From Azolla caroliniana (taxonomy: Eukaryota > Plantae > Polypodiophyta), in the NCBI GenBank assembly GCA_043228905.1, contig JBHGNT010000013.1, forward strand, positions 4,836,001-4,900,000: a DNA stretch of 64,000 nucleotides, given 5' to 3'. The position numbers and the translations under genes are program-made. Positions 10,212-43,530 of the stretch are shown here, one piece after another; within the stretch, counting starts at the first letter, position 1, and each line of letters opens with the position of its first letter. Below the pieces are notes generated by a model that had not been told where the DNA came from, did no database searches, and worked only from the letters and a program-made list of their open reading frames with translations.

Positions 10212-10315
10212 GTCTCGCTCACTTCTTCCTTCTCTCGAAGAAGTTCCACACCTCTCATAGTACTAATCCTTCGTTTAGTACTAATTCCTTCTCTGTCTCA
10301 GTACTGTTCATGACA
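9868..10315 (+). repeat. 3' LTR of chromovirus copy 1
   Basis: TGTCATGA...TCATGACA after the PPT; near-identical to the 5' LTR. Confidence 0.95.
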
Positions 10316-15436: not shown

Positions 15437-16220
15437 ACGTCATTTCATCAGAAGGCATCTCCATGGACGTAGCTAAGGTCAAGACGGTGGTAGAATGGCA
15501 GACTCCGCGCTCGGTGCAGGATGTGCAATGCTTTTTTGGCTTTGTCAATTTCTACCGGAAGTTTATACAAGATTACTCAAAGCTCGTTCTGCCTCTCACA
15601 CAGCTTACCAGGAAGGGACATCGTTCATTTGGTCTGAAGAAGCAAATATGACTTTCGAGAGTCTTAAAAAGGCATTTACATCGGCTCCAATTCTAGCTCA
15701 TGTCGATCCGGAAAAACCAATCATCATCGAAGCTGACGCATCGGATTTCGCATCGGGGAGCATTCTGTCACAACGGGGTAATGATGAGAAGCTACATTCT
15801 ATGGCTTTTAACTCACGCAAGTTTGACGCCGCTGAAATCAACTACGAAATTCATGATAAGGAGCTATTGGCAATAGTGGACTCGTTTATGCAATGGAGGC
15901 ATCTTTTAGAGGGATCCTCTCATCAAGTCACCATATTCAGTGACCATAAAAACCTTGCCTACTTTCAGGATGCTCGTGTGTTAAATCGACGTCAAGCTCG
16001 GTGGGCCCACTTCCTCACGCGTTTCGACTTCAAAATTACATATCATCCGGGGAAGCACCAAGGGAAGGCAAATGCATTATCACGGCGTTCGTATCTAACA
16101 CCACGTCCCGGCGAGCCAGCTTTCGATAACCAAAAGCAAGTAATCTTCGGACCGGCACGACTGCAAGCAACACAAGTTTTTGGCATGCCCATGGATTCCC
16201 ACGTTATCAATATCATACGT

Positions 16221-19873: not shown

Positions 19874-19926
<53 letters not shown>

Positions 19927-20077
19927 CTCACTATCTCTCTCTCTCCTCTTCTCTCTTCCTCTCTCAGGAGTCTTACGCAGTCCCGTCCTCTTAGTACTAA
20001 TAGTACTTCCCTTCTCTAGTACTAATTCTCTCTCTGTTTAGTACTAATCCTCTCTCTGTTTAGTACTATTCTTGACA

Positions 20078-23000
20078 CCAACCCTCATGTTTCAAACTCA
20101 ACTCAGCTCGATGCCAGGAACGCTCCGTTTTCGATGGACAGGGCCCTTCTCAATTATCGATGAATTTAACGGAACATTCCAACTCGGTACATTGGTCGTC
20201 AACGTCGTGCGAAAGTGGGTCAATGGGTTTCGGTTAAAACTATACTTCGACCATACCCCATCCAACCCTTTTGTTGGTAAACAACACAGTCAAGACCCGC
20301 CCACAGTAGGTGAAACAGAGGATTTCGGGGGTCACTGGCCCCAATCCCAGTAATTAGTCTACCTACCGCCGGAATTGTATACTATGTGAAAAAAAATGAA
20401 GAAAAAAAGAAAAGAAAAAGAGACCCACTAAGTAAGTATTTAAGGAGCATGCACGACTCACGAGAAAAGAAAGTACAAATGGTTTTTCGCCGCATGGTCT
20501 TTACACCTTATTATGGTTGCCAAGATTCTGAATCTAGGGCACAAGGCCACATCTCCAGAACCAAGGTACCTACAAAAAGGAGGGCACCACAGGTATAACA
20601 CTCACTCATGCACAGACGCGCGAAGCCCTCAAGCTCTCTCGCCTTCTACACAAACGTTATCCCACTTCAGACTTTCTACATAGAAGCTTCTTCACAATCC
20701 CTATCTCCTTACCCCCCTATTCACTCTTCCTCTTCCAAAAGGATCATGTTGCTCGAAGTGTCCAAAGAACTCCGCACTTGGCTGAAAAGGCACAGTTTGG
20801 GTGGATGCACTTCCCCACCCCGAGGCATAGGAGATCGCACGTTGAGTGCATACCGACACCATCACCAACAATCAGAACCGGTCAGTGTTGGGCCTGCAGG
20901 GAGGAGGAGAACATGACATCAAGGCTCAGCCTCAGAACATCCTCGAAGAATATTTCAGGGGTTACTCGTTGTCCACCAAGGCATATCGAACACATGGTAG
21001 GCCTAACAAGTTCATTGGCGATCTCGCCAAAATTCTTTTGGAGTTTGGCTACGTACACGCTAACGCGTACAACATGCAACAGAAAAAGGTTGACATCATC
21101 ATCACGGCATATAGAGGCGGCGCCCTCGATTGGGCATCATCACTGGGGACAGAGTTTGTGCCGCCTTGTCGGCTTTTCAGGCAGGTAAAAGGTTCTTGCC
21201 TGCTTTAGCACATTCCTTAGTTGTGCTTTACCCCCCCTAATCCTTGACCACACCTCGTCAAACTCTTGCCCTCCTCGCCACATCCACGCATGCGAAATGC
21301 CAATGAGCTCTTTAGTTAGCTCAAGAGGAATGGCAAGATGACACATCGGTTTGAACCCCTACATCATCGTGACCGATAATTGACTCCAAGACCTAGGAAA
21401 CTGAAGACAATATCACCATAAGACGGCACAAAAAACCTAAATCATCTGCCTTGGTGGATAAACCAAACTAAAAATGGCCAGCATGCGACCGGACCATTAG
21501 GAGGACACTCGGACAACCACGGGAAATAGCAGACAATCCTCCGGGGAGCAACCCAAAAGGCTCAGAGATGGATCTGTGGACACGCAAAGGAGCCCTGCCA
21601 AGAAACGCCGCAGGTTGCAACACCACAATGAAGAAAAAACTCAAAGGGGATTCTTCGTCTGAGAAATGGCAACTAGTCATTGCTCCCGCCAAAACCGTCG
21701 CAGTCATCACGGACAAGGCCTTGTCCTTAACAGGAAATATGAAGCAAGGACAACATTCTCGTTTCTTGAAGGAGGAAGTAATGACCTTTAAGGACTTGCC
21801 TGTCGAGTCCTACGAGCTCAACGCGATCTTAAAACACGACACGGCGTACGAGTTAATCGACTTCCTCACTCGCTTCCACATTGTTGCTACGGCACGCATG
21901 GCTCAAGACCATGCCGAACAACAGATGGTCCTACGGGCGTTAGGCAATGGGCTCGAATCCGACGAGGAGCCGCAGCTACAGAAGATCAACCGGAAACGCA
22001 TAACCAAAAACCGTTCCGCTCGGATCGAGCTACCGAACCTCAACACGGCTTTGATCGAGGTTTTCGGCGAATTGGAGAAAAGGACCCGCACTACCAAGGA
22101 CATGGCGGTTAGTAGAAAAAAAGTGCGCAAACAAGCCAAAATGGCCACGGAGTTATGGCAGGCCTCGGAAAGCCGCCTGACCGAGCTTCAACACCGGCTC
22201 CGCAAATCCGGAGAACCCAAACTTCTCACCTTACCAACCCTTGATTCCAATCTGGCTGAGGTGTCCACACAAATGGATGAGCCCAACCCTCCCAAGCTAG
22301 TGGAGGTGTCCACCCAAATGGATGAGCCAAGCAACTCGGTAACAACCACGGTAACGGCCGAGGCTCCAACCTGTGATTGCGACGAAGAGCTTGCGGTGCA
22401 AACGGCAATTGCCCAGAAAGCCAAGGGGCGCTACGAAACGGCCAAAGAAGAAGTTTACCAACTACGAGCGCAAGTAGCGAAACACGAAGTAGCACTCCCA
22501 CAGCTACTCGACGCACAGACGGCTCAACTTCAGGAGACTGAAAAGAATGTCGTTGCATCCCTTAAGGACACTAACAAACTCGCGGTAGCAAAATTAGTGG
22601 AAGTAGAGGAAGAGCATCCACGGGCATCTCACCAAAAAACCAAAGAACTCGTAACTCCGTAGAATGAACTCTCGGAACTCCAGGTTCGTGCAAGTCGGGA
22701 CCTTCACAAGCTAGACGAAACCAAGAAGCAGCGAGTGGCATTGTCGGAGTCACTTCACCAGCTGCAAATATTTGTGACCGTAGAACTCAAACAGCAACAA
22801 CACCATTATATGTAGGAGTTAGCCGATAATTCGGATCGACTCCTCTAACGTTACGACATGTATACGAAGAAGCTGGAGGCACAACTCGTCAACGCTATAG
22901 TATCGTGTGACATCCTCAAAGCCAAGCTCAAACGGGACGCTGAGAAAGCTCAAGACAAACTGAAAACCCTCCAAGCCAAATATGAAATGGGCGAAGCACA

Positions 23001-24291
23001 AATCAAAGCCCTAGTGGCCAAGCACCGTCTAAAGCTAAACCAAAAATTCAAGGAGACACTCGCTCGAGCCTCGAATGAATGGTTGGCTAAAGCAGCCGAA
23101 TTATAGGTCTTCCGAGTAGACGCAGAAAATCGGGAAAAAGCGAGCCGTGGATTCTAAAAAATGAATGAGAACAGCATCCAGATTCTCTGTGAAGATTTCA
23201 CTAAGGAATTCCACCCCCTCGCGCATATGCACACAACAGCCATCGGTAACCTCCTCGAATAATTCAACGATGATTAGTTGTTGCTCATGCTAGAAACGAA
23301 AGGCTATGAAAAAGTGTGCATCCTAGCTAAAAAGGAAGCAAAATCCACCGCGCAGGAATCAACAACCCATGTAACTGAGGAAGCAGCCAAGAGTAGAAAG
23401 AAGAAGAGGACACACGGCTGAAGTAGAAACAAAGCAAGGGGCTGAACAAACCACAGAACCCCAACAGGACGCACCGACTCCAGCATCCACGATGGAGACT
23501 CTAGATCAACAGCTCGACGTATCGGCCAAGTTACACACCGAGTTTCCAAATTAAGAGTCATCTCAAGCACAGACGAAACCACCTGCCCTTGTGAGTACCA
23601 TGCCAAGGGTCAAAGAGACGACCAATCTCCAAATCGGATCATCACAACAATCGGAGGACACCCTTGCCATTTTGGAAGAAGAATGAGGGCACTATAGCGA
23701 AGTTTTTTTCGGCTAACTATCATTTCGATTTTTTTCGGTCTATGTTTTTTTTTAGAAACTTTTTGAGGATTCAGGTTCATCGTGCAAGGCATTGTCCCAC
23801 GGGTGTGCCAAGTGTTATCCGTGGAACAAAAGACACAAAGTGTGAAACGAACCTAAAGGGACGACTAGGTAAATTAGGTGAAAAGAGAAACGACCAAACG
23901 TGAAGGAGTAGCTGAACGTAATACACACAGCCAAGAATAGAGGCCGAAAATCAGAGGATTGGTTGGAAGCATGCTGAGGGGATACAAAAGCTATATAAAG
24001 TGGGGAGCAGCAACAGAATAGAGGAGAGGGATAGAGAGATATACTTGTTATGCTAGAAAGAGGGGATTTTATGTCTATTTTTCTGTGAGAAAGTGAACAA
24101 TAATATCGTTTATGAACCGTGTAACCAATTTATAAAGTAATTCTATAATACATACGTGGTTTCAGGTCAATTTCCAGTGTCCTTCAATATTCATCTATAC
24201 GGTTGGGTTTTATTCCTACTCATAAAACGTAAGTCATAAGACCAGTTGTGGCCAGCCACTTCATAACTAATCGGCTTGATCAGCCCTAACA
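20078..24291 (+). mobile_element. 3' part of a non-chromoviral Gypsy (element A): integrase C-terminus, decayed extra ORF, 3' LTR
   Basis: LRFRWTGPF...VNGFRLK matches the integrase end at 37225-37788; putative LTR 23813-24291 (TGTTA...TAACA). Confidence 0.8.
20746..23600 (+). pseudogene. Extra ORF after pol in element A, frameshifted
   Basis: Fragments WLKRHSL, VLGL...EEYF.GYSLSTKAYRTHG, IITAYRG..LDW, a coiled coil and AAEL..FRVDAENR...KMNENSI align by eye with the extra ORFs of elements B and C. Confidence 0.75.
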
Positions 24292-25021
24292 TTCTCTCCT
24301 ACATAACCACGATCCCTTGACCCGATTACCCAAGGAAGTAATCGAAGGTGTATCTCTGAAAGAAGAGATAACACATTCGTCGAGTATGAAGGGGGTTGCT
24401 CGAGCAAAGGAAAGGGAGCTACGACAACCGATCGGTGATTCGAAGAGCGAGCGAAGGTTATGATAGATCAGATGGTGATGACAATCAGATGAAGGGGCAT
24501 GTTTGTAATGAAGAACAAATATGGACGGGACCAAAACGACAACGAGGATGACGAGGCAGATGACAACGGACAAAGGGACCCCTCCACACCGGTTTGTGAG
24601 ACATCGACGGTTGCGGATCAACATAAGACCGGAGAGATGGACGGTTGTAGCGAGGAGATGAGGGTCGAAGCCAACGCATATGGAGGGAAGGTGGCCAAGC
24701 ATAAAGCCACACAAAAATTCAATGGAGAAGCGGAGGGTGGAAAGAAAGGAAGAGTCGGGAATCGGTCCGATCGGAAGACGATCCGTCCAGTAATCCGACC
24801 TGGAGGAAAGCCGACTCCGTCGAAACCAACTCGGTCGAACCTAATTCGGAATAAGCCCGACACGGTCGGGGTGGTAGGGACGTATAGCGACATGTATGGA
24901 GGACAAAAGATGGACGGGCTGACGAGGGCGTGGAGGAAGCCGGTTGATCGTCGTTGCCGAAATCTCACTTATTCCCCTTTCTTGGCACATACCGGAGGAT
25001 GTGTGATTTGGTGAGGGTGGA

Positions 25022-25979
25022 TGTCATGAAGATTTCCTGCAACAGTTAGAAAATCTAGTACGGCGAATAAAATGGGGATGTGCAACAACTTGCACATGGA
25101 CATCAGACAATGTGTATAGGAATAAGAAAGAGGGAAAAATAAATGGGAAGGGTCACCACTCCCCTGGGGCTATAAATGGGGAGGGGTGCTCACAAGAGAA
25201 GGGTCACCCATTTTGGTGAGGGGGGGTGCATTATGTCGATCTAGGGTTTCTCTTTCTTCTCCTTCTTTAGGGTTTGGTATTTTTCTTCTTCTTCTTCTTC
25301 TTTCTTTGGCTTTCTTTTTTGAGTGAACTTTTAGGGTTTCTTTTGGTTCTCCTCTCTCTTCTTGGTTAGAGTTTCGGTTGCTCTAGGGTTCTTCTTCTCC
25401 CTATTTCGGTTTTAGGGTTTCGGGTTTCTTCTTCCTTGTCGTCTTGGTGAGTAGATTTAGGGTTTCTTTTTCTAGGTTTTGGGTTCTTCATTTTCATGTG
25501 AGTTAGGGTCATGGTAGGGTTTCAGGTGTTACTCTCTTCTTCTTCTTCGTGTGAGAGTTTGGTTTAGTTTGGGGATTTCTACAATGGCGGCTCTTTCAGC
25601 ATTCCAGTGGTGGCCTTCTCAGTGGTTCAAGCGTCCTCTCCTAGACGGAAAGCGTTTGGTGCGGTGGCGGTTTCGACAAAGGCGGATTAACTCGGCGGCT
25701 GGTCATCGAAGGGAGACCAAAGTGACACAAGAACACTCCACCGTCTTCGGAGTTTGACCAACGGTCGGAGTCGTGGTCCGGTGGCTCACTCGACTTGCCT
25801 TCACCACTCGTTTTGTATCTCGTTTTGCCCTTTGTTGTACCTTAGCTTATTATTTGTAAAAACCACCGCAATCGTGGCGTTAAGCTAGTTCATTGTAACC
25901 CATTTTTCTTGTATCATAAATCGTGTATATTTTTTTCCCAAAAAGTTTGTCTAATCTTGTGCTTGATCCGTAACCGCGA
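25022..25979 (+). repeat. Probable 3' LTR (truncated or interrupted) rich in telo-box motifs
   Basis: Purine tract, then a TGTCATGAAGATT start, TATAAAT near 25171 and many TAGGGTTT motifs; interrupted at 25980. Confidence 0.6.
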
Positions 25980-27775
25980 TGTTGTGAAGATTTTTGGCAA
26001 TGGTGTGAAAATCGCGTGTAACGGAGAAAACAAGAAGGTGCAATGTGCACACGTATGAAAGGGGGGACACTCGTATGTTAGCACGTTAATTGTAATGAAG
26101 TGGATGGATTTTGTGTAGCGGAAGAATTGTGTGTGTGTGTGTGTGTGGAGAGAGAGAGATCACAAAAAAAATAAAAAAATTGTATTACAAGGAAACAAGA
26201 ATGACCAATGCATTACAAAGAGAAGGAGACGTACTTATGTAGTCACCTTCTCTGTAAGTTCTCTCACTAGTACCGCCTCTTCAGAAAGAGGTCGTGTCTT
26301 AACTACTTAAAGCATATGTGTTCACTCACTTGAGTATCCTAGAGTGAGTTCCCACACACGGGAAGTTGAGTTTGATTCTCAACCCACCCCTTCAACCACA
26401 ACTTCTGGATGTTGGATGGTTGGTTTGGACTGGTCTCTGGGTTGGCTTTGAGTCAACTCCGGCTTCGGCTTTGAATGACCGGTTCACTCCTGCTGGTCTT
26501 TACTCCTACTGGTGTTTACTCCCACTCAAGCTCGGCTGGTTGACGGTCGAAAGACCCACATTCGTCGTGAACTGCCACAACTTGTTGACTCCCAGGTCCT
26601 TGGTGAAAATGTTGGTCGTCTGTAGGTTCGTGTTGGCGTGTTGCCTATCGACATCTCCAGCCAGGACACGTTCTCAGATGAAATGGTAGTGCATCTCAAT
26701 GTGCTTAGTTCGAGCGTGGAAGACTGGGTTGCAGGTCCGGTGGATGTTTCTCATGTTGTTGCAATACAGGAGAATCGGACCTTGATGGGAACGTCCAGAT
26801 CCTTCAATATTCTCTTGAGCCAAACGGCTTCACATGCGGCGACAGCCACGCCCTTGTATTCGACTTTGGTGCTCGATAGTGCAACTGTCGTCTGCTTTTG
26901 TTCTGCTCTAGGAGATGGCTCCACTGCCGAGGGAGAAGACGACCCTGAGGTTGATCATCTGTTGGCTTTGTAGCCGGCCCAGTCGGCATCTGTGTACCAT
27001 TTGAGTCATATCTGTGGGACCGATTTGTAGAGGATGCCGAAATCCATGGTTCCACTCACATACCTTAGCACTCGAGATGGATGTCTCGCGGAGTTTGCAT
27101 GAACTAGCTAAGGAGGCCAACAGGGTAACTCAGGTTAGGTCAGGTAATTGTGAGGTAGATGAGGCTTCTGACTAGCTTACGATAGAGAATCGGCTGAAGA
27201 GTTGCCTTTTGGTATGTTCGATGTCTCGGAGGTACTCTCCTCCAATGACCAAGTTGTTCACATAAATTATGATCAATAGTTGTCCTCTGGAGTCATTTCG
27301 GATGAACAGACAATTGTCAGACTTAGACATTTGAAAGTTGATTTGGTGAAGATATTGCATTATCTTCGAATCTCATGCTCTTGGTGCCTACTTGAGACCG
27401 TAGAGAGGCTTTTTGAGTCAGCAAAAAACAGTTGGATGCGTAGTTGACCCAAATCCGGGCGTTTGTATCATGTACACATCCTCTTCTAACTCGCCTTGGA
27501 GGAAGGCATTCTTCACGTCCATTTGGTGGAGGTGCCACCCTTTTGTTGCTGCAAGCGTTATCATGGTTCGAATGGTTGTCATCTTTGCCAATGGCACAAA
27601 GGTCTCTTCATAATCAACATCGTGCATCTGTGTGTAGGCCTTGTACCGATTGATAGTGTCGACAGCATTGTGCTTCACTTTGAAGATCCACCGGCATCCA
27701 ATTGCCTTTTGGTGGTGTAAGGGACGAGACCCATGTCTCGTTCTTGGAGAGTGCTTGCATATGCTCATTCATTGC

Positions 27776-28212
27776 TATAAGGAATCGGGTATGATTCTTG
27801 TGTAGCAGAGCAGATGTGTGTTATGTGTATGTGTCAAAGGAATTAGAGGAGAGAAGAGAGAACACAAGATAGATAGAGAAAGGAATACTCAAGAAGAAGG
27901 TGTATATTCACAAGTAGAATAGCAAATACAAAATGTAGCATTACAAGGAGTCACAACTGACTTAATATGAAGTATGAGGAGGGTCCTTTATATATAGTCA
28001 CCCTCTCTCTTCATTAACTAACAACCACTCTCTTTTGGGGAATGTGAAGACTCATAGTCATGGGGAATATGTAACTCATTAGTTATGTGTCATAGAATAT
28101 GACACATAGTGAATGTGTAGAGAGTAGTGGGGTGACTCTTGACCTTTGAGTAATCATCGATTCTCAAAAGGTGTGTTCACACGTTGCACTATGTTGAGCT
28201 TGATTCTCAACA
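27776..28212 (-). mobile_element. Copia-type solo LTR
   Basis: Interrupts the RT N-terminal region, ends TGTTGAGCTTGATTCTCAACA, degenerate TSD ATTGC/ATCGT. Confidence 0.75.
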
Positions 28213-30479
28213 ATCGTTTTGACCCATCTAGGGTACTTTGCGGCTTCGAAAAAGGTTTCCGGTTCTTGGATTGGTGCCACCTTCATCATGAATGCATAAT
28301 GATATGCCATGTAGTCATTGTAGCTGAATCAGTTGACTACATTCTTCTCTCAGTTGGAGCGACGAGGTTCTCCTAGTGTCCTCATGATGGGCACGTCTAG
28401 TCCATCATGCTCACTATCAGGTGAGTGGTTTGATTCATTTCTATCTGAGTCTTCGTACTCAGGCATTTTGGCTTTTCCTTTGTCCTGTTTCAAACTCGGT
28501 CGCTCAGAGGCTCTTGTAGTCCACTCAACCTAGTTGAGATTGTACTTTCCTCTAATGTGAGCCCCGTTCGATCATCCTCTGTGTCGAACTCGGTTTCGAC
28601 TGTGTTAGATGGAGTTGAGTCAACCATGTACCAGGATGTTGATTCGTCGTATACGACATCCCTACTCACTCGTACCTTTTTGGTAGAGAGTTTGAAGCAC
28701 TTATACCCCTTTTGCATGTACCCCACGAGGATGCTTTTCTCCAACATGGGATCTAGGTTTTGTTGCTTCTCCATCGGGAATATGTACATATGCAATCGAG
28801 CGGAATATCCTGACATGGGATAGGTTCGGCTTCTTACTGTAGAACTTCTCCTGAGGGGTGAGATCGTGCACTCCAGATGTTGTGCAATGATTCAACCCAA
28901 TATGATTTTGGCAAATGTTTCTCGTTCATCATTGCCCTTGCCACCTCGAACATGTGCCGGTTCTTGCGTTCGGCTACTCTGTTCTATTGATGTGTGTGTC
29001 CGTAGGTGAACTCCCTCCGAATTCCTTCTTGTCGAAGGTATGTGGTAAAGGCATCAAAGAAGCACTCTTTGTTGTCGTCCAATCGAAGGCATTGTACATG
29101 CCGATTGGTTTCCTTCTCGACTTCGTTCTTGAATTTCTGGAAGTGCGAGAACACTTCACTCTTTTGGCGCATGGGATAAGTCTAGGTATGTCTAGAGAAG
29201 TCGTCGATGAATGTTAGGTTATACAGGCAACCACCAAATGTTGTCGTCTGGGCTGGTCCCCATACATCTGAATGCATTACATCCAGGATCCCTTTGCTTA
29301 CATTCCTCGTGGGATGTCATGTGGTTGGATGCACCAAATTGACAAACCATACATCTTCTGGTTTGGAGGTGTTGGTCAGGTTTGATGTTGTCATCGAGTT
29401 CACTCTATGCCTCATCACAAACATTCCACCACGATTGTCGTAGTTTGTGAGTTGTCGGCTTGTGGAGGTCGACTCACCCTTCTTTTGCCGACACTGCCTC
29501 ATAGTGGCCGAATTTACCACAGTATCTGCACTGGGTAGGATTGTTTTTTTGGTTGGGTTCGACATGATTGCTCCCCCTTCTTCCGAACGCTCCACCTCGT
29601 GCACTCGAAATGTCTTGTCGGTAGTAGAAGTTATGTTCGCGGGCTTGTTCTTGGTTGTCTCGGCCTTGGCCGAATCAGCCTCCTCTTCACGACCTTGTCC
29701 TCTTCCTCCATCAAATTTCGAATAGAGCATTTTTCCTTCTTGCACATTGCCACATGTTCGAACATGATTCTCCTCAACCAGCAGCATCAACTGGAGATCG
29801 AAGGAGGGAGGATTCTCCCTCGTGAGGACTTCCGACCTAATGTCTCCGAACCAAGGTGCTAAGCCTTCGAGGCAAATCTACACCATTTCATCGTTGTCAA
29901 TGCTTACATTGATTGACTTGAGGGCATCGCATAGTTCCTTGATCTCCAAGGTGTGGTTGTCGATTAACATGTCCCTCTGTTGTATATCGTTCAACTCTTG
30001 ACATAGTTGAAGCTTTCTTGCGGTCGTATTGGCCGCGAAGATCTTCTTGAGGTTCCCCCACGCCTCCTTCGGCATTCTGGCCTCTCGGATGTAACTGAGC
30101 ATGTGATCATTGACGCATGATGCAAGGTAGTACAACACACGACTCGTCGGCATGTGTTGGGTTGGGTTGATTTTCGTGTGCTCCCTCGACATAGCTCCAA
30201 TAACCTTGGCCGACAAGGTATTGGTGCATCTTGTACTCCCAAGATGAAAAATTGTTTCTGTCGAGCTTCTCAGTAGGAAGGGTGCTTCCCATCCAAGTAT
30301 TCATGTCAAGCTTCTTCTTCGCTTTGATACGAACTATTTAGGTTGCTGCTACATTGATCAGTTGGTTCTTTCCAAACTCGGGATTGGGCATAACACACGC
30401 AGAGGCGATGGACCTAGATCAAGCAACCACGCGCTCTAATACCATGTAAAGAAGCGGATGGATTCTATGTAGTGGAAGA

Positions 30480-30558
<79 letters not shown>

Positions 30559-30659
30559 AGAGAGAGAGAGAGAGAGAGAACTCAAGATTACAGAAAAAAC
30601 AAAAAAATTGTATTACAAGGAAACAAGAATGACCAAATCATTACAAAGATAAGAAGAAG

Positions 30660-31050
30660 GTGCTTTGCATCCCTCTCACTCTTAGAGAGACAATGCCACC
30701 AAGCATACTTTCAAGATCCATGGACTAAGGGATGGCTCTTCGACTCATTAGTGACCCCTTCCCTCATGTATGCATCAGTAGTATGGGCTCCAGGTCTACC
30801 ATCTTTCATGTGGGCACAATTAGAGAGACCTTTGGTGATGATGTTATCATGTCAACTCCGAAGCAAATCGACAGTACCACATGACCTTATTAGAGCAGAG
30901 TTTAGTCTACCCCCGATGTTAGTAGAAGCACTCTTTCACGTGGTAGTTTTTATTCATCGGATACATAGCCAGCCACAAGATAGGATACCCCATCGAGCCT
31001 TTGAGGCATCCCGATCCCTACATGCGTCTGGAGACACTAGCTCTTGGTAT
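30660..31050 (+). mobile_element. Non-LTR retrotransposon (LINE) post-RT fragment captured inside an LTR
   Basis: TKGWLFDSLVTPSLMYASVVW...VPHDLIRAEFSLPP is typical of the region C-terminal to LINE RT; the segment is absent from the sister LTR. Confidence 0.7.
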
Positions 31051-31526
31051 AGCCTCTTGGGAAAGAGGTCGTGTCTTAACTACTTAAAGTATATGTGTCA
31101 TAGAACATTAACCTCTATGACACACTAGTTACTATACAAGGAGGTGGGGTGTTCACACACTTGAGTATACTAGAGTGTGTTCCCACACACGGAAAGTTGA
31201 GTTTGATTCTCAACATTAATGTGCATGTGAGATGTGTGTTTAGGTGCTCATAACACAAAATATAAAAAATAAGCGTAGGGCCTAGTGGCATTCAAAGAGG
31301 TGCAAGTAAAGTTTTGAACCTTACATATCCAAGATAGGAGACAATTGACATACCATTAAATTACGTTATTTCTTTAAAGTTAGTTTTCGTCATTGTATTT
31401 TTCACATGTAAATTCTCATACATGAGAGCTTGAATGAGTGACATGGTTATCATGCATCGCATGCCTTTCATGCATGTCTTACACCCTCACTTGCATCATA
31501 TGCATGGGGGCATCTATATAAGAAAG

Positions 31527-31979
31527 TGTTGAGAGACAAGCTCAACATCGGCCGAATCGGCTAAAGAAGCCGAGGACCGGATCGGCTGGGACTGATCGGT
31601 TAGGCCGTTAGGAAAGATATTCCGTGAGGAATATATTTGGGAGTTAGTGTAGGAGCTCTTAATGAGCATTGAAGTACTGTCAATACTCCAGTCAGTCCTT
31701 CTAGGGCTTGTACAAAGTGTTCATTGAACACATATATGTATAGTTTTTGTCTTTCATAATATATTCTCCCTTTGGTGTCTTCTCTCAAACTCTCTCGGTC
31801 TCTCCCGCGTATATTGTGTAAGCTCAAGCTCTCCATTAAACCTGAGTGTTCTCCCTTCTGTTCTGTCTTTATACTTGCTTCCGCACGCTACTTTTTACAT
31901 GGTATCAGAGCGCGAAGGTTGAGAACCTCTCTGCAGCCGACACAGCTTGACGAAGAAGAACAAGAAGAACGATGGATAG
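31527..31979 (+). mobile_element. Copia 5' LTR, Met PBS and gag start, truncated by an insertion
   Basis: TGTTGAGAGACAAGCTCAACA...TTTACA (31899), then TGGTATCAGAGCGCG; related to the LTR at 51307-51676. Confidence 0.8.
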
Positions 31980-34910
31980 TGTTGGCCGGTCAGAAGAGCA
32001 AGGACAAGTGGAAAGGCGGAGTCGGATCGGATAATAGGAAGTAAATAATAGTATAATTATTATTCGGAGGGACGGATCCGGTACAGTTGTACCGATCCGG
32101 ATCCGGACCGATTCGGATGCCGGTTGCCTAAGCGCACCGATTGTAACCTTGTCGGATGCCTATAAAAGGATCCGATGATTTGTAAATGCTTTACGGAAGT
32201 AATACAATTTTACTTATTGCGTGTTTATCTTTATCTTTGTATTGTTTTACCGTCTGTGCTTAGTGTAATCATCTTACGCGTGTAACCTAGCATCCAATCC
32301 TTACCACCCCTTTGGAGAAGTGTCGGATAGACACCTGTGTTGAGGCTAGTCCAGCCAGGCAGACAACACCTTTTGGCGACCACGACCGGGATTCTTGTCC
32401 CCCGGCCATAGCCAGGTACCGGGCAGCGTTCCTAATTGCAACGTACGAAGGATTACAAGTGGACTGGCTCCATTTCATAACCGAAGGATTGAAGGAGGCC
32501 ATCAAGAACCTTGTGAAAGGAAAAAAGCCATGGGCCGGGATAGCACAATGGCTAACGGTGTTAGTCCCACCGGTGCTCCCCATCAAACAAAAGAAAAGAG
32601 GTCGGCAGGAGACGACGCCGAAAAAGGTCACAAAGCGCCGACATATCCTGGAGAAACACACCCCCGGATGGACCCAGGAAGAAGCAGAACAGCGGGAGGA
32701 AGGACCATCCCGACAGTAACAGGAACCGGCAACAAAGGCAAAACCGGCAGGAAAAGGCAAAGGAAAACCGGCCGAGGAAGAACCGGTAGCGCTCAAACCA
32801 ATCAATATAACGTTGCGACGGCCGGAACCGAAACCAAAGGACTTTATACAAAAGGTCCGTTTGGTAGCCGCACCGGAGGAGGAAGCTGAAGCAGAAGACT
32901 CATCCGAACCACTGGTAAGACTCCCAGCAAGACAAGGTCGGGAGAGACGGGCGAGAGGACCAGCTCCACCAGTTGACAGAACTCAGCAGAGGGCACAAGG
33001 ACCACCTCCAGTAGCCGGGGCGGAAGCAGTACCAGAACCCGCACCAAGGGAAGCAGTACCGGCACCGGTTTTGCCGGAATTCAGAGAACCGGTCATTCCA
33101 AAGAAGAGGAATGAACAAGCGCCAGAGCCAGAGAAAAGGCCGGAAAAACAGCCTGAGTTAAGGAGTAGAAGTGAGCAATGCTACTCCGACACAGGAAGCA
33201 CAAAGCCACAATGGCTGAGATGGCTTTCGGAGCAGGTATCGGGAGTAGCGGACCAGTTAGAGGAAGAAGAAACGTGTAGGCAACACCTGACGCATACAAC
33301 AACCCAGGAGTTGGTCGCGTTCCGAACACAGATCCATGAGTTGCAAGGGGAGCTGTTGCAGGCGAGGGAAGGAATTCAACAAGCACAAGTTGTCACCGAT
33401 CCGGTCGGGACAACAAGGAAGCAACCAGAACCAGAACCAGAACCGGTAACCTTGCAAACTGGCCCTGAGACCGAAAAAATAATAGAAACCTTGCGAGAGG
33501 AGTTAAAAGCTCAGGAGGCATTAAGGGAAAAAGAAAGGGAGCAGCGGAAAGCGGTGGAGGACGATAGACGAAGAATGGAAGAAGGCCTCCGGAAAGGCCG
33601 AGCCACTAATGACCGACTGCAAGAAGAAAAAGAGAAGCTGCAAAAGGAGAAGGACCGACTGCGTCGACAGGCCGAGCAGGAGATAGAGAGACTGCAGGAA
33701 GAACTCCGACAATAGAAGGACCGAGACGACCGGTTAAGAGCTCAGGTAAGCAGACGCCTGAAGCAGAAGACGGAGGACTTCGACCGACTCTACCGAGATC
33801 ACAAGCAGGCCGAGTCGGACAACAAGAAACGGGCAGCGGACTACGACCGGCAAATAGAGAAGCTGAAAGAACAGCTCAAAGAGACCCGATTAGACCTGGC
33901 TAAGACAATGGACGAGGTCAGTGCCAAAAAGGAAGCATTGTCGGCGGAAATAACCCAAGCGACGGAGAGAAGGAAGGAATTAGAGGCGCTAATGCGGGAA
34001 AAGCTGGATCTGACCAAGATCAGGAATGAAGAAAAGGAAAGATCGACCTTCACGATCAACAAACTGCAAAGTGCCTATGAAAAGCAGAAAGCGGATTACG
34101 AAGCCCAGGCTCAGATAATGGCCGACATTATAAAACGGGCAAGGAAGGAAAAGCAAGAAGCTTATGCGCATGCTAAAGCGGGGGTTGACCGGATCAAGCT
34201 CATCATGTCATGTTGGAGTACCCGAGCTCAGGCAAGCATCAACGAAAGTACGGAAAAGCTATGGAAGGAGTGGTCACAACAGGCAGCCGAGCTGCAGACA
34301 CTCCGAGCTGATGCCGAGAATCGGAGGAAGACCGGTGACAAGTTCTACAAGATGGATGAAGAAAGTATCGTCGCCGTTCGGGAAGAATTGTCAGAGGATT
34401 TCTACGCTTTAGCGGAAGAACATCTCAAAGAAATTCGAGGGTTGGTAGAGAGGTTGGATGACGGGCAACTCGCAACTCAGTTGGAGTTGGAGAAATACGA
34501 GCAGGACCGGTTACGACAGGAAGCTGAGGGAAGAACGACACCAATCACTATAAGTGAGGGAGAGCGACCGGCTGAAGCTGAACCAACCGACACCGAACAA
34601 CCCCGACAAGGAATACCCGAAGAAGAACTTCCGTTCCAAGAAAATCAAGAAGAGCAGGTGCAGACCGATGCCGGAGAAGAAGAAGAGCTGAGACCAGAAA
34701 ACACCGGAGCAGAGGAAGAAGGCGCACCGAACCGACCAGTCAAGACCGGAGAAAGCGACACTGGTAACAAAACAGAGCCTGGAACGGAGGAAGAACAGGA
34801 AGAACCCGGACGGAGCGGTGAGGAAGCACCGGCACCACAGAATCAAGCAGAGCCGGAGCAGCAAATTTTTACGGAATAGCCAACCCAACCGGAGGGTTTT
34901 GTATTTTCCG
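31980..34910 (+). mobile_element. Gypsy element C: 5' LTR and Arg-type PBS fused directly to the extra ORF; gag-pol absent
   Basis: The LTR at 31980-32368 resembles the LTR at 43094-43530. PBS TGGCGACCACGA at 32374-32385 is followed immediately by the extra-ORF sequence. Confidence 0.8.
32395..34879 (+). pseudogene. Extra ORF of element C (coiled-coil protein), 5'-truncated, two in-frame stops
   Basis: ORFs starting at 32312, 32813 and 33908 share one frame; homologous to 34911-36837 (IATYEG, WLTVLVPPV.P...KKRGR, WLRW, L.EEL.AQEALR). Confidence 0.82.
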
Positions 34911-36837
34911 CACGTTCGTCGGCGATCGCCATCGCGGCCCGATCAACTTCCTGCTAGAGCTCGGCCATCCGTTCCTTATGCTCCGTTTCCAGCCGTTTGT
35001 AGTCCCAGTGCAGGTGCTCAAAATCATCTGTCTTTTGCTTGAGCCGTGCGTTGATCTGTCGACGGGCCCGGTCCTCGCGGTCCTTCTTCTGGCGGAGCTC
35101 TTCCTTTAGCCGTTCAATTTCCGTTTCCGTCGTCTTCCGCAGCTTGTCCTTTTCTTGCAGCACTTTGTCTTTTTCCTCCCTTAGCCGGTCATACGCTTCA
35201 TGGCCTTTCCGGAGGCTCTCCTCTGCCCGGCGGAGGTTCTCAATAGTCTTCTTTAATTCTGCTTCGGCCGTTGTCTTTAATTCCCGTTCCCGGCTCCTTA
35301 GCGCTTCTTGTGCGGCAAGTTCATCTCTCAATTCCACAAGCTCCTAGGCTTGTGCCGCATCTCTCTCTGGAACGGTTTCCGTTGCCGGGGTCTTATTGGT
35401 ATGTACAGGTTGATCTGTTTCTTTATTCTGTACACTTACCGGAGTCACCGGGGATTGGATCTGTGTTGCCGTTAAGGCCATTTTGGCCATCTCTGCCGTG
35501 ACCTGATCCAAGTCTTTTTCAAGGCACCGGATTCTGGACCGGGCCGTCTCTAGTTGTTTGGTTGTGACGAGCAACCGTTCGTTTTGCACTCTTTCTTCCG
35601 TCTCAATATACCCTACTGCTCCGGCAATCTGTTCGCCTATCCACCGGAGCCACAGGCTACCGGTGCATTGTTGTTGTGCTTGCATGGAGGTTTGACAGAT
35701 GGGCTCGCTTGTAGATGGGTGGTCCCGCCTGATTGCGCCGAGTTGTAATTCCGTTCCTGCCCGTGGACCACCCTGCTGTCCTGGTTCCCCTTGCGCTTCT
35801 TCTTGGTTGGCCGAGGGAGGCTGTATTGACCTTTCCGGTTCTGGCGGAATGGGACTTGCCGGTGCTGTCGGTGGTGCAAGGGCTTCTGATTCTGGTGTCG
35901 TGCGCACTGGTTCCGGTTCCTCCCTTGGCGTGGGAGTCTCAGTATGGGGAGTCGATGTTCCCTCCGTCTGAGGGTCCGAACGTTTCCCGGCTGCCTCAAC
36001 GGTCCTTGCCAACGACCGTCGCTGGAGGTGCTCCGTAGGCTCCTCCTCTATTTCCTCTTCCTAAGTCCCGGCATTGAGTTCTGCCGCCAAGGGGTCCGCT
36101 TCTCTATTCACCGGTCGGCGGAGTGTAACCTTTACGGGCTGTACCGGTGGTTTCTCCTGCGCATCCGTTGGCCGCTTCCGGCTGGCGCTCTCCTTTCCCG
36201 CTTGTTCTGCGTCTGCCGCCTTCCCCTTAGTGGCCTTAGAGGCCAACAGCTGTTGTCTTTTGGAAGCCGTCTTTGGGGTGCCGTCCGCCACTCTTCCCCG
36301 CTTCTTGGGCTCGACGGGCTCGACGGGTGGCACAAGCAAGGTGAGCCACTGCGTTACTGTGTGCCATATCCTCCGTCCTTCTCGGGCTTCTTTGTCGTCT
36401 TTTCCTCTGATGATCTCGATCACCGCACACAAACCGTCTGCGATCCCTTCATAGGTGGCGATGATCATCCCTGCCCGGTTCTGCGGCATGACAGGGGGTC
36501 TGGGGTACATATGGCCGTATTCGTGGAGCACACGGGCAATCTCGCGGAACAACATATCTCCGCCACCCTGTGTCCAGTAGCCCTTGCTGGCTAGGGAATA
36601 CTCACCAAAATACTTGATGAGTTGCTCCGAGGTCGGATTGTCAATCGTGAATATGTCTCCCTCCGGAAGGCCTGTTAACGCACGGATCGCCTCATCCGTT
36701 ATGACCTCTGTGTCGATTTCTTTGATCACCTTGTCGGCTTCTTTCTGTGGCGGTACCTCCATAATCGTCAAGAAGCCCTCGAGCCCGTGTTGCTTTAGCC
36801 ATTTCTTAGCGGCTTCCGACGGCGTTTGCGAGTCCAT
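34911..36837 (-). pseudogene. Extra ORF after pol in element B, in-frame TAG stops, truncated
   Basis: ORFs 36061-37065, 35344-36012 and 34954-35337 share one frame; probable start MDSQTPSEAAKKWLKQHGL at 36837. Confidence 0.85.
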
Positions 36838-37224
36838 GTCTGTGTCAAGGTCGGATTGTGGTGGCGAGGTTGGCTGGTGATGAGAGTGAGAGTGAGAGTG
36901 AGAGAGAGAGAGTTCAGAAGGGGGGGGTTCTCTGTGCGTAGGTTCTCGTCTGATGATCTTCCAGCGCCTTGGTGCTTCTGTGCTCTTGGGTTCGCGAAAG
37001 TAGAGGGTCTCCACGCGCAGTGGTTTTTCTCTGTGCATTCTGGCGCCTTTTTCGAGTGTGTGCACGTCGTGTACTAAAATAGCATTATGTCTTGTGGTGG
37101 CGCTTAAATGCCCACTACGTACCTTTTCGCTCCTCGCTCTCTCTCATACCTCGCTTTTGCCTGATTACTTCACTCTTCTTCTTTTTTCTTCTTTTTTTTC
37201 TTTTTTTTTTAATGTGGTGTGAGG

Positions 37225-40200
37225 TTAGTTTTCCGTTGGTCCTATCGGACCCTTACCGGCCTCATTACGGTTTGTCGTCGCCTCATTCTCCCCTGTTACC
37301 GGCTTGCCGTCTCCTCCGTCTTGGTGGTTGTCGTTCCCCTCACAGGTTGCCGTTTCCTCACCGGTGTCGGTCCTTTGCTCAAATGGGTTCTTGGGCATTG
37401 GTCCTCTATATGGCTTCAATCGGAATCCGTTGACCCATTTGCCTAGCACTTTGCCGGCAAGTGTCCCTAACTGGTACGGCCCATTATACTCACGTGTTAG
37501 CCAATACGGACCGGTCGATCTAAACCGTAGTTTACCCGGCATCTTGCCCATCCGGGTCTGAAATACTAACACCGGCTTGCCGATTGCGAACACTTTTTCA
37601 TTTCCTTTCCTGTGCCGGTCGACAAATGCTTTCCGTCGCCGTTGTTCCAATTCTAAGTGCAAGATGCTTGCCAGTCGTTGTTCCTCGAGTTCACACAGCG
37701 TTGTTAACCATATTGCCTCCGATTCCTTCTTGTTCAGCCGTTCCCGTAGCTGGATCCGTAAGCTTGGTACTTGGAATTCCACCGGCATGACCGACCGCCT
37801 CTAGTCCGAAAGCTAACCGGAATGGTGTTGTCCGGATGCTCGTTTTGTATGTTGTCCAGTATGCCCAAAGCGCGCTATGTAGCTTGGTATCCCAATCCGT
37901 TCGGTTTTCGTTGACGATCTTCCGGAGGATATTCTGGATCGTTTTGTTCGTCGATTCAGCTAACCCGTTCGCTTGCGGATAGTATGGTGTGCTCCGTTTA
38001 CGAACAACGACATAGAATGTCGTCAGGCTTTCAACTACTTGGCCGAGAAAGTGTCCCCCTTGGTCGCTTATTAATTCGATTGGGCATCCGTAACGGCACC
38101 AGATGTACTCGTATAGAAATTTTGCCGTTGACGCAGTGGTGTTGTCTCTTAAGGCTTTGGCCTCCACCCATTTCGTGCAGTAATCCGTCGTGACGATGAC
38201 GTACCGATTACCTGTTCTTATTACAGGTGGTTTGAACGGTCCAACAAAGTCCAGCCCCCACTTCTGGAATGGTTCGAGTGGTAGTACAGGCTGGTGTGGC
38301 ATCCGAGCCTGCTCTGTTGGCTGGCCCATTCGCTGGCATAGGTCACATTCTTTTGCGTACCGTACAGCATCTCTTAATGTCGTTGGCCACCATAGGCCAC
38401 TTTGCCATATTTTCCTGGCCGTCGCATCTCCGGCATAGTGACCTCCGGCAACTCCACAGTGGGCTTCCCTCAGTATGAGGTCCTTTTCATCGTTGCGCAC
38501 AGCCCGTCTCCATATGCCGCCCGCGCCCTTGTGGTAAAGTGTGTCTCGCAATAAACAGAAATGTCGGTTTTGCACCGCCAGGCGTTTCCTTTCGTCCCGG
38601 TTCATCTCTTCCGGAGGCAATCTTGTGCTCAGAAACTGGTGCATATTTGTGAGCCACTTGTCTTCCTGTGCCACCGTCTCATCTGTTGTCGTTTCCATAG
38701 TGACTCGAAACAGCTCCGCATCCAGAAACTCGTCCGCTACTCCGTCACCCATCTCTCCGGACTCTAGTCGGCTTAAGTAATCCGCCACGGCATGCTGTAT
38801 ACCGGGTCGGTGGAATATTTCAAACTCGAATTCTTGTAACAGTAAGGTCCACCGGGCCAACTTACCGGTGAGTGACGCCTTGGACACCAGGTAAAGGAGT
38901 GTTGAATGATCTACATGGAAGGAAAACTTCCTTCCCAATAAATAATACCGAAACTTTGTCACACTGTAGATCATCCCTAGAGCTTCCCGTTCTGTGGTAG
39001 AGTAGTTCCGTTCCGCTTGGGATAGCTTTCAGCTGGCATAGTACACTGGCCGGTACCACTTTGGCTCCGTAAGTTGCATCAGTACGCTTCCGATTGCGAT
39101 GTCGGAGGCATCCACGAACACATGAAATTCTTTACTCCAATCCGGAGGTTGCACTACCGGTGCTTGCGACAATAGTACCTTGAGGGCCCTATACGCCCTA
39201 TCCTCGGTGTCGGTCCACTAGAATGGTGTCCGATGTACGGCGGCATGCAACGGTGTAGCCAGGTCGGCCAAGTATCGGAGCATCCGGCTGTGCCACCGGA
39301 TCTGGCCTAAGAACCGGCTCAATTCCTTTGCCGTTGCCGGCGTTGGTGCTTCTAATATGGCTTTCACTTTGTCTGGGTCGACTGCAATGCCTTCCTGGCT
39401 CACAATATGTCCTAGTAAGGTTCCATTGGACACGCCAAATACACACTTCGCCGGATTCAAACTTACCCGGTACGCTCTACACTTTTCTAGACAAAGACGG
39501 AGGTGCTGAAAATGGTCCTCCTCCCGGCTATAGACGGCGAAATCGTCAAGGAAAACCTGCATAAAAGCCGGGATATATTCACCAAAGATTTCCATCATGA
39601 TTCGTTGAAATGTTGCCGGTGCCGTTTTGAGTCTGAACATCATCACCACGGCCACAAACACCCCCCATTCGTTGACGAAAGCCATTTTCTCTTGGTCGTC
39701 GGGGTGCATCCGGATCTGATTATACCCGCTGAATCCGTCTAGAAAGCTATAGACCTCATGGCCGGCGACGGCATCCAACACTCCATCTGTGAACGGAAGT
39801 GGAAACGCATCCGTTACCGTAGCCACATTGAGTTTCCGGTAGTCCACACAAACTCGAATTTTTCCGTTATTCTTCAGTACGACTACGATCGGGCTCAACC
39901 ATGTCGCTTTCTTTACCGAACGGATAAAGCCAACTCTTAGCAGTTTGTCGATTTCCTCCTTGACTTTGGCGGCATAATTGGGATTCATCCGGTACCATCT
40001 TTGTGCCACTGGTTTTGTGTCCTTGCTCAAGTGAATCTGATGCTGGTATAACTGAGGGTCGAGTCCTCGCATGTCTTCGTATGACCAGGCAAACACGTCG
40101 CGAAATTCCGTGAGAAGTCTGATCATCGCCGTTTTGTCTTCGGACTTCATCTCCTTGGCGATGTGCACCGGTTTTGCTTCGTCCGTGGTCCCTAGGTTCA

Positions 40201-43127
40201 CCTCTTCAAGTTGCGACGCTTTTACGCACTGTGAAACGGCCATTTCCCGTTCCAACGCTTCCTGCGCTTGCCGTAACTCTCGGATTGCGTCTTTATCCGG
40301 TTCTGCTTCAGTCTCTTCCGACTGCGGTAAGTATGGTGCTACGGCTTCGGCAATGTCAATTTCGAAGAGGGGTACGATCTTCGGGTTTTCCTGCAAGTAC
40401 TGAGCTTCTTCTTCGTCAGCTAACCCTTCTAGCATGTTGACGCACTCTACATACAACGGTGTACATTCCTTGCCAGTGCTCGTCCTTGGCTGTGTTGGTA
40501 CCCGTACCTTGGCTTTTCCTCGCCGGAAGGTAATTATATTTTTCCTCCAATTCTGTTTGATATGTGCCGTTTTCAACCACGGCCGCCCCAGCAATAGCGG
40601 GTATGCGCCTTGTGCCTGTAATTGTAGCACTACTGCCAAGATGTGAAATGTATGACCGCCAACGGTGACTTCTAATTTTCGTATTAATCCTGTCGGCCGC
40701 ACTGAGCTTGTATCGGCCATCCGTAACTAGAATGGACACGGCTCCCACTCGTGGATTCCTAGGGCATCACACGTTCGGAGGCTTATTACATTCACCCCGG
40801 AGCCTCCGTCTATTACTGTACTGGGGAGTTCTTTCCCTTTTACAATCACCGTAATTACCGGACTGTTGGTGTCCACCACCGTTGGTCCCTCCTCCGGATT
40901 CGAGAAGAGTATCGGTGCCGGTGATGATTCTCCTTCCGTCATCGCTGTCTTCAGTCCTTCCGTGAATCTCGGCACGAGCTGAAGGAGTCTTCCTAGTGGC
41001 AGCGTAATCTAGTATTCTTGCAACGCCTGCCATGTCTCGTTTCCGGCGTGACTGCCGCCGGCAAGCCCTACGGTGTTCTCCTTTTGCCGCTGTAAGTCTA
41101 TTACGTTTTGCTCGTTTGCTTTCTTCACTCATTTTGTCGCTTGCTTCCGAATGGTCTCCTGCGTCTCCCATTCCTTGGCCATGCCCTTCGAACTTGTGGT
41201 CACCTGCTGCAGATCTGCCACTTCAGGGACTACCATATTTACTGTCGGTCGTTTGTCATAGCTCTTCGCCGGGCCTTGATTACTATAATGGCCTTCCTGT
41301 CGGCAGTAGTAGCAGTAGGCTTTCCGGGTATTGTTGGATTCGGCATTGTCTGTTGTACCCGAGGCCGTTCCTGTGGTAAGCGCGGGGTTTTGGGCCAGTT
41401 GGCTGCTTGAAGCTCCTTGTTCCGGATCCCGTGGGTAGCCAGCCGCCTTTTTTGAAATGCCGTTTTTTGTTATAGTTCTTCTTATTGCGGTACTCTTGAC
41501 GAGGTTGGTCGTTATATCTGTCGTGTTCCTCCCATTGCTGACGATACCCGGGGGAGTGCTCCCGGTCGTAATGTTCGTATCGTCTATTGTAATCCCGGTA
41601 CCGATCATATCTATCATGCCGGTCGTAGTTATCCCGCCGATCACTGTACCGGACATCATTCTCTCGTCGATCGCCATACCGAACATCCTGTGCCAGTCGG
41701 TCGCGGTCCATTCGCCGCCAGCGTTCCTCTTCTTCATCCCGGCTGCTGCGTGGCTCTATTTGTCGGACGGGCGGTGCTTGCCGGTTCAATAGATTATACT
41801 CGCACCTATCCGTCGTATGGCCCTTGGATTGACAGATTACACATTGCATCCTCATAGTGCATTCTAGTGCCGAGTGTCCGGAATTCAAGCAGGTTGTGCA
41901 CTGTATTGCTTGCCGAAACCGGAGGTCTTCATCGGACGGTAACACCCGTTGGAGTACTCCCAGTGTGAGCCAGGAGCTTGTCTTTTCCATCTCTCTCACT
42001 CGGTCAATGACTTGGTCGATGGTACTTGCGCGGAAGTCAATTACCGTGCACACCGTGCGTAGGGGTTCCCGGAGCGCATTCAGAAATATAGACCGTAATT
42101 CCTCCTCCGGGGGTGCGCGGGTAAGCTGACTATGCATCCGTTGAAACCAGATGACAAACTGGGGAATGCTCTCCCCTGCCTCCTGTCGGATGGTATAAAA
42201 CAAGCCCACCATTACTGTCTGGTCCACCTCCTTTTGGAAAAAATGCAAGAATTTAGCTTTTAAATCTGCGAAGGTGGTGATGGTAGACGGATCCTACGTC
42301 TGGCGCCATCTCACTACCGGTCCTTCCAATGTGACGCCAAATTCCGCTATCTTAGAGCGTTCCTCTTCCTCCGGGGTCAATCGCTGGGACACATGGTTTT
42401 CTTCCCATGTCTGTTCAAAGGCGTGAACATGAGCTTCTGCGTCCGGATCATCTCTATACTTGGAGTATTGGAACGGCATGTCGTCGTCCGGTATCGGTGC
42501 GCGGGCTGGCGGTGTTGGTGGTCGTTCCTGGTTTCTCTCCGGCGTCGGTGGTCTTTCCTCTTCTTTTGGTGACGGAGGCCTCTTCTCCTCAACTTCCGGT
42601 GTCGGAGGTCGTTCTTCCTCTGCTGGTTTCGGAGGTTCCAGCCTTAGCACTTCCAGTTCCGGTGTCGGTAAGGTGTCCAATCCTTTGTCCTCCGGTCCGG
42701 CCGGGGTTTCGTTGCTGCAACGGTAGTTCGTGTGCACGTTGTATTCCCCTTCGGAATCCGATTCATATGCTGAAAAGGCTTCTGCTTCGCCTTCCCCGCT
42801 TGCCAACGCCTGGAGAAGGGATTCGGTTTCCCGGAGGCTGCTTAGGTTGTTGTCGTCGTCGTCAGGGTGCGATGTTTGCGGTAACCAGAGGGACTCCTCC
42901 GCTACTCTCCGGATTACGTTGGAAAACGAGCGATCCGCTCTAATTTCCTGCGCCGCTTGCTGGAAAGCTTGACGTCTCCTTTGCCTTTCGGCAAGGCGTC
43001 GAGTTCGATCTGTAACCAGGTCGTGCGTTGATCTAGTCATCCATTCGTGCCGTCGTTCGCTGCAAAAACAGGAATCGTGGTCGCCAAAAACTGTGTTAAC
43101 TCTTAGGGCCGGACAATGGCCTAACAC
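37225..43127 (-). pseudogene. gag-pol of element B
   Basis: ORF fragments 42294-43127, 41283-42248, 41129-41737, 40727-40975, 39218-40720, 37691-38974 and 37225-37788 occur in Gypsy domain order. Confidence 0.9.
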
Positions 43128-43530
43128 AGGGTGTCTACGGAAGACACTTCACCAAAGGGGTGTTACGGCAACAGGATTAGACTCAACGATTAATCCGACT
43201 TAATTAGGTTACTTAGGAAGATTGTCCTTAATATTCACACGCGTAAGATATAACAATGAATGCAAAACGGCAATTAACACAGAGAGATAACAACACTAAG
43301 CTTTATTAATTAACCGCTCCTCATTACATTGTCTCCGGGCTTTTAAATAGGTTTCCGGTCTGTAGTACAAAATGGTGCCATCCGCACCTGTTCGGGATCG
43401 GTCCGGATCCGGAACGGCATACCGATTCCGGTCCGTCCGTCCACACTACTAATAGCTTACATACAACCATTCCTAATAATTAAATAACTCCTTCGTTTCA
43501 CACTCTAGACTCCTTTGCCGGCCGGTAACA

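Follow-up and report, generated by a model that had tools for sequence, protein, structure and literature searches.

What is the function of the large sense-strand open reading frame (ORF) that lies downstream of pol in three diverged Gypsy retrotransposons, elements A, B and C, in a 64,000-nucleotide stretch of DNA (contig JBHGNT010000013.1, positions 4,836,001 to 4,900,000; hereafter the window)? We propose, with a probability of about 0.4, that an Athila-like Gypsy lineage carries this extra ORF as a conserved accessory gene, and that the gene product is a nuclear factor with a VANC21-type fold that binds the DNA of its own family and counters host silencing. The position of the ORF, its conservation, the purifying selection on it, its co-variation with the integrase and its lack of a membrane segment carry this proposal, together with a predicted all-alpha N-terminal domain (N-domain) that matches VANC21 over the whole domain.

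A conserved extra ORF downstream of pol

A first-pass annotation had described homologous sense ORFs in A (+), C (+) and B (-), and six-frame translation and alignments confirmed them. The A and B proteins align with 31% identity over 93 aa (E=3e-14), and tblastx connects all three elements (A-B 4e-14, A-C 4e-13, B-C 6e-47); blastn found no DNA match between A and B or A and C. The spacing of about 390 nt from the integrase stop to the ORF is also correct, running from the stop at 20351-20353 to the ATG at 20746 in A and from 37225-37227 to 36837 in B. Pol precedes the ORF as described in B. In A, the integrase C-terminus (20078-20353) is the sole survivor of pol, with a chromovirus long terminal repeat (LTR) directly upstream. 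Mapping against natural relatives revealed that C is a 5' LTR and primer binding site (PBS) fused directly to ORF codon ~111, with gag-pol and the early N-domain deleted. All three window copies are damaged by stops, frameshifts or truncations.

Several details of the annotated protein needed revision. The A ORF ends at 23686 rather than 23600, with an acidic L-x-I-L-E-E terminal motif as in its relatives. Among the N-domain motifs, WLK.H.L, GLP.G and YF..YS are missing from C, which begins at codon ~111, and an 8-codon in-frame gap deletes the DW motif from the window copy of B. The middle domain of the A subfamily differs from that of B and C.

First-look searches of the window's own genome gave 4084 (B N-domain), 3859 (A N-domain) and 4479 (C C-domain) candidates; 150 were scored per search and 150/150 matched each time, so that copy numbers are lower bounds. 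Fifty elements, picked mainly for long open frames, were fetched and sort into subfamilies B, C and A/D. Uninterrupted natural ORFs encode 916 aa (L033) or, in 10/10 C elements chosen for an open frame, 944-980 aa from the Met that starts the N-domain (hereafter the domain Met), in agreement with the annotated size of roughly 900 aa or more. Seven of the ten C elements have LTR pairs, either ~390 bp long at 97.4-99.7% identity or 427 bp at 93%; most of the seven are ~10 kb long, and the ORF stops ~50 nt ahead of the 3' LTR. Since LTR pairs of high identity flank it, the ORF is an internal gene of young elements.

Beyond this genome, an N-domain profile yielded 336 protein clusters at 50% identity, at least 150 of them among the matches listed, and the ten clusters looked up were all ENA or JGI records without names. 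Word-index protein searches likewise returned just unnamed ENA or JGI proteins, none with a Pfam family, among the matches listed (the best 120 of 189 in one search). A distant second group from JGI, ~20-29% identical, was detected at E 1e-13 to 1e-21, with 0 matches for reversed controls, and its members have a Met start at the same place as the N-domain. The ORF family had no match in viral contigs.

By make-up, rather than by reference phylogeny, the host element appears Athila-like. Pfam on the B pol and the domain order of a natural C-family polyprotein contain no chromodomain and no aRH, and the sense ORF 3' of pol, an Athila trait, is present; Athila CDD matches are placed 3' and forward (3'F) in PMC6317226, Additional file 4. 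A 5-bp target-site duplication was perfect in one of six C elements, had one mismatch in two and was absent in one, with the boundaries of two unresolved. Athila PBSs mostly correspond to tRNA-Asp (72%), else to Asn or Ala (REXdb table), whereas the PBS of a D element matches tRNA-Arg(UCU).

Purifying selection within families and fast divergence between them

The ratio of nonsynonymous to synonymous substitution rates (dN/dS), pooled over ten copies of the C family, was 0.18 for the N-domain, 0.22 for the coil, 0.21 for the C-domain, 0.32 for the tail and 0.59 for the linker. In six copies of the B family, the values were 0.16 for the N-domain, 0.27 for the coil and 0.47 for the linker. Integrase (0.14-0.17) and reverse transcriptase (RT; 0.26-0.36) served for comparison. 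The copies were selected for open frames, which may bias the ratios slightly downward; every 95% interval for the ORF parts in both families excludes 1. The extra ORF is thus under purifying selection, as the first-pass annotation had supposed from persisting amino-acid motifs.

Between families the picture differs. Synonymous differences between B and C are saturated, and the proportion of nonsynonymous differences (pN) is 0.33 in the N-domain versus 0.056-0.067 in integrase and RT, so that the N-domain diverges ~5x faster than the integrase (0.056) between these sister families. The N-domain and integrase trees both split B, C and A/D, and their distances are correlated (Mantel r 0.80, 0/2000 permutations, 29 rows) after 3/32 rows (L033, L283, L060) that carried another element's integrase were dropped; r was 0.23 with them in. 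Since relatives share history, this correlation reflects co-inheritance, not co-evolution. Constraint within families, fast change between them and divergent LTRs together fit a family-specific recogniser.

Predicted fold of the N-domain

The N-domain is predicted to be compact and all-alpha, and a structure search matched it to residues 307-525 of VANC21 (PDB 9LNK) with 8-10% identity, near full-length coverage and a gap of 3.7 Z over rank 2. In an embedding search (Atlas), the neighbours were Transposase_32 (PF20167) and ATHILA ORF-1 (PF03078) at 0.84-0.86, with 117-121/256 features shared. The hidden Markov models (HMMs) of PF03078, PF20167 and PF10536 gave no match above the curated cut-off in single proteins (0/8 and 0/67), and none was listed for the 143 aligned members. 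The family is less isolated than the annotation implied, in that the predicted fold and the embedding place the N-domain near known transposon proteins. Own-genome searches with PF20167 (0 candidates) and PF10536 (3 candidates, 0 matches) had no positive control and are uninformative. Foldseek found nothing at E<=0.001 in PDB and BFVD, and a VIA second look over the Foldseek matches was empty. For the C-domain, the best Atlas score was 0.78 and the best PDB profile match E=0.11, which gave no lead. Ribosomal uS19, matched in a PDB sequence search, was rejected, since E rose from 1e-4 with a 26-row profile to 0.16 with a 143-row profile and the fold searches do not support it.

Three observations weigh against a VANC-like DNA-binding factor: the Z of the VANC21 match is modest, the N-domain is net acidic, and no tandem target motifs were found in the elements scanned. 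The scan, which had no shuffle control, covered a single element each of B, C and D, and none of the top 7-mers listed had >3 copies; the non-coding parts span just 0.9-1.5 kb. The protein probably functions in the manner of VANC/PMD-type proteins (PMD, plant mobile domain), but by definition it is no VANC. A literature search over the text available found no published link of Athila-type ORFs to VANC/DUF1985 and no report of fern Athila extra ORFs.

A tRNA-like 3' end in place of the polypurine tract

No polypurine tract (PPT) was found in the elements examined; a chromovirus in the window has one. At the 3' end lies a ~40-nt site, a sense copy like the 3' half of host tRNA-Arg(UCU) that is one C shorter and has an additional hairpin following the T-loop. 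In most cases the CCA of the site ends 2 nt before the 3' LTR, with a longer distance in one family, and the ORF ends ~50-130 nt upstream of the site. A 16-nt core of the site has 2101 exact copies in the own genome versus 0 for the control. The ORF lay upstream at 23 of 30 sampled motif loci, and the searched PBS pattern occurred within 900 nt downstream at none (0/30). In the hairpin, whose structure was derived from the same sequences scored for covariation, 5/6 pairs change on both sides, 0/500 shuffles reach the score and the values for slid controls fall well below it, while covariation is absent from the T-stem pairs. The site was also present in 126 metagenome stretches, with the ORF upstream in 55/80 rows tested; two of these sites appear to be chance occurrences, and a single assembly series accounts for the remaining loci listed.

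We found 45 distinct tRNA-type junctions, many of which are ordinary PBSs of related families. The 27 exact tRNA+CCA sites are not all relics of plus-strand primers, since many are ordinary 5' PBSs of related families on the other strand. At five junctions (L124, L127, L130, L190, L196; L198 is borderline), true tRNA sequence with CCA is fused to the LTR start. Two of these junctions carry 51-57 nt of tRNA at the outer edge of the 5' LTR, including anticodon-arm sequence absent from the element, and the elements of both have the usual tRNA-like site at the 3' LTR. Since the clean tRNA genes seen (L095, L108, L112) do not encode CCA, mature tRNA must have been the template of the junction sequences, which is what plus-strand primers that were not removed would leave. 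We consider it probable that a host tRNA primes the plus strand; alternatively, the tRNA mimic primes itself, with occasional template switching. B and C retain the 3' site despite a different PBS, which argues against simple PBS-to-3' pairing; their PBS does not match the genomic tRNA-Asp, and a search with one guessed pattern did not find the corresponding tRNA. A full-text literature search found, among the papers listed, no description of a tRNA-primed plus strand of this kind.

Other loci carry related arrangements. At C3:8.087-8.095 Mb (L211-L212), two 552-bp direct repeats of one LTR family, 99% identical, flank an inverted B-type pol and extra ORF; this chimera is joined at the tRNA-like site and apparently arose from a PBS copy pairing with that site. 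A non-coding LTR family at C2:12.743 Mb (L209), with a ~2.5-kb internal region, has the same PBS type and 3' tRNA-like site; no gag-pol or extra ORF was detected in it, and it reads as a non-autonomous partner. At L144-146, L191, L197 and L200, an LTR end and PBS start are followed by an 18-nt sense tRNA copy, resembling end-to-end cDNA junctions with the primer retained. Dense clusters of tRNA-like copies occur at C2:25.15 Mb (Leu-CAA type), C4:19.5-19.7 Mb (Arg-UCU type), C5:17.9-18.0 Mb and C7:17.26 Mb, and many look degenerate.

Expression, proposed function and alternatives

Upstream of the domain Met, at a distance of 260-380 nt, is a TATA-like box similar to one in the LTRs; it is clear in A, C and D but weaker in B. 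A splice acceptor, which had been suspected at 36880-36910, is unsupported; the upstream box suggests an internal promoter instead. In-frame ATGs exist upstream of the domain Met. A longer N-terminus seems possible, since third positions vary most in the 67 codons upstream in C (11/9/18), as they do at the start of the N-domain (9/6/17). B and C proteins contain the annotated basic stretch resembling a nuclear localisation signal (NLS), which is bipartite. With this stretch and no Pfam family match, the description as an uncharacterised, probably nuclear accessory protein is upheld.

In the mechanism we propose, the internal TATA promoter would give a subgenomic mRNA ending in the 3' LTR, and the bipartite basic stretch would bring the protein into the nucleus. 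There, the N-domain may bind the DNA of its own family while the coiled coil and C-domain oligomerise the protein. The acidic tail, with its conserved terminal amphipathic motif, might recruit a host chromatin or transcription factor. The protein would act in trans on all copies of its family and keep the family active.

The same fold could serve another job: in place of the missing chromodomain, it would tether the pre-integration complex to chromatin or help to import it into the nucleus. Such roles of extra ORFs have been proposed (PMC7264820), and the chromodomain-less pol, the NLS-like stretch with the long coil and N-domain distances that follow integrase distances (r 0.80, 29 rows) all fit them. 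We regard this as unlikely, since a reader of host chromatin need not diverge ~5x faster than the integrase between sister families. A cofactor of the particle or of reverse transcription seems less likely still; it might bind element RNA, or load or anneal the second tRNA primer where the PPT is missing. Although the ORF ends close to the tRNA-like site (~50-130 nt) and co-occurs with it (23/30 genomic loci, 55/80 metagenome rows), co-occurrence within one lineage is expected by descent alone. The site is also nearly invariant across families while the N-domain diverges fast, and the sole fold match is a DNA-bound nuclear protein.

The VANC21 match might also be a chance all-alpha likeness, with the N-domain adopting a new fold; the protein would then have no relation to PMD/VANC and act as a nuclear scaffold or transcriptional activator. 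This is about as improbable as the tether, since coverage is near full-length with 3.7 Z to rank 2, and the structure and embedding searches each single out accessory domains of plant transposons among all proteins. It is very improbable that the ORF encodes an env-like protein for movement or fusion. The long coiled coil would suit such a role, as would the placement of the ORF, which follows pol in sense orientation and precedes the 3' LTR like the Athila 'env-like' ORFs (PMC7264820), but the peak 19-residue hydropathy is 1.1-1.4 in 5/5 proteins, below 1.5, with no hydrophobic N-terminus, in line with a soluble protein and with the annotated absence of a signal peptide or transmembrane helix. 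The family-specific anti-silencing factor is the reading that we prefer.

Features of the window

B runs in the order 5' LTR, PBS, gag-pol and extra ORF, and is truncated at 34893 (Table 1). The 3' LTR of A begins at 23813, with the CCA of its 3' site ending 2 nt ahead.

Table 1 Positions of the features of elements A, B and C in the window
Feature	Position	Strand	Remarks
A integrase C-terminus and pol stop	20078..20353	+	integrase stop 20351-20353
A TATA-like box in pol-ORF spacer, putative internal promoter	20437..20443	+	same box in C and D subfamilies
A extra ORF, interrupted by stops and frameshifts	20746..23686	+
A ORF N-domain	~20746-21290	+
A ORF middle domain, A/D type	~21640-22280	+	coil after it
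A ORF C-domain	~22975-23385	+	acidic tail after it
A tRNA-Arg(UCU)-like 3' site with small hairpin, at the place of the PPT	23774..23812	+
C 5' LTR, ~390 bp	31980..32368	+
C PBS, 5 nt past LTR	32374..32384	+
C extra ORF, codon ~111 into acidic tail, 3' end cut	32397..34894	+
B extra ORF, cut before C-domain	34893..36837	-	N-domain 36837-~36325, basic NLS-like stretch, P/E-rich linker, coiled coil
B weaker TATA-like box in pol-ORF spacer	37103..37110	-
B gag-pol: gag, protease, RT, RNase H, integrase	37225..43088	-	no chromodomain, no aRH seen
B PBS, identical to that of C	43076..43086	-
B 5' LTR, ~440 bp	43094..43530	-

C (+) and B (-) meet tail to tail at 34893-34895 with a 2-3 nt overlap and both 3' LTRs gone; this junction may be a deletion or an assembly join. 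The window also contains a chromovirus at 4635-10316 (+) that has a chromodomain, a normal PPT and LTRs of 99% identity. Another chromovirus copy, which is disrupted, lies directly upstream of the A integrase remnant at 13349-20070 (+) and includes an array of seven 105-bp units (16495-17228, 91% matches). A further type of Gypsy element occupies positions 1-4013 (-); its gag region is DUF4100-like, its RT is divergent, and its relatives are inserted in fetched loci (L059). Six perfect CCCTAA units at 63045-63080 form a telomere-like repeat in an internal position.

Significance and comparison with known systems

The function of Athila/Tat extra ORFs has been an open question for two decades (PMC7264820, PMC6317226). 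The predicted VANC21 link over the full domain makes it testable through family-specific DNA binding and methylation loss, and natural specificity pairs are on offer in young families, whose intact copies are many and whose N-domains have diverged sharply. It is possible, though doubtful, that this is the first case of an LTR retrotransposon lineage with its own family-specific anti-silencing protein of the VANC type. VANC, PMD and Athila-ORF1 would then be one old transposon fold that already existed outside flowering plants, with the Athila 'env-like' 3' ORFs as its retrotransposon branch, and both strands would be primed by host tRNA. Should the host be a seed-free plant, finding this fold in a retrotransposon would bear on PMD-A versus genic PMD ancestry (PMC5418596) and on the proposal that VANC came from host MAIN (PMC13547354). 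A tRNA-primed plus strand, if true, would be an exception to a near-universal replication rule of LTR retroelements.

Canonical LTR retrotransposons (PMC7264820) share with the elements here the normal 5' PBS, TG...CA LTRs and, in some of the elements tested, the 5-bp target duplication. They prime with a PBS tRNA and use a PPT for the plus strand, whereas the elements here have no PPT and a tRNA-Arg(UCU)-like 3' site with a covarying hairpin. The Athila 3' extra ORF (PF03078/PF20167; PMC6317226, PMC11728184) agrees in position, orientation, absence of aRH and chromodomain, and embedding neighbours, and an NLS is predicted for a sunflower Athila ORF that contains PF20167 (PMC11728184). Unlike it, the protein here has no HMM match, ~950 aa, a long coil, a conserved C-domain and an acidic tail, and its elements lack a PPT and, in the D family, have a PBS of Arg type.

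The PMD-CC and Tr28-CC ORFs of Tat/Ogre/Retand (PMC4408406) also join a globular plant-transposon domain to a coiled coil. However, those elements have aRH and an ORF that is antisense 3' or sense 5', and PF10536 has no match here; early Tat lineages and moss Tat-like elements are reported without extra ORFs (PMC4408406). PMD has been reported to resemble DUF1985 of VANC (PMC4408406; PMD-A, PMC5418596). VANC21 itself, from the Mutator-like DNA transposon VANDAL21 (PMC5735166), resembles our protein in the predicted N-domain fold, a conserved domain with variable low-complexity regions, a coiled coil and fast divergence between families. It differs in that the gene here is encoded by an LTR retrotransposon, with 8-10% identity and no tandem short-motif arrays found, and DNA binding and demethylation are proposals here. 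An OTA extra ORF with a globular domain and a coiled coil was thus already known, and our analysis adds a predicted structural link to VANC21 and a PPT-less 3' end.
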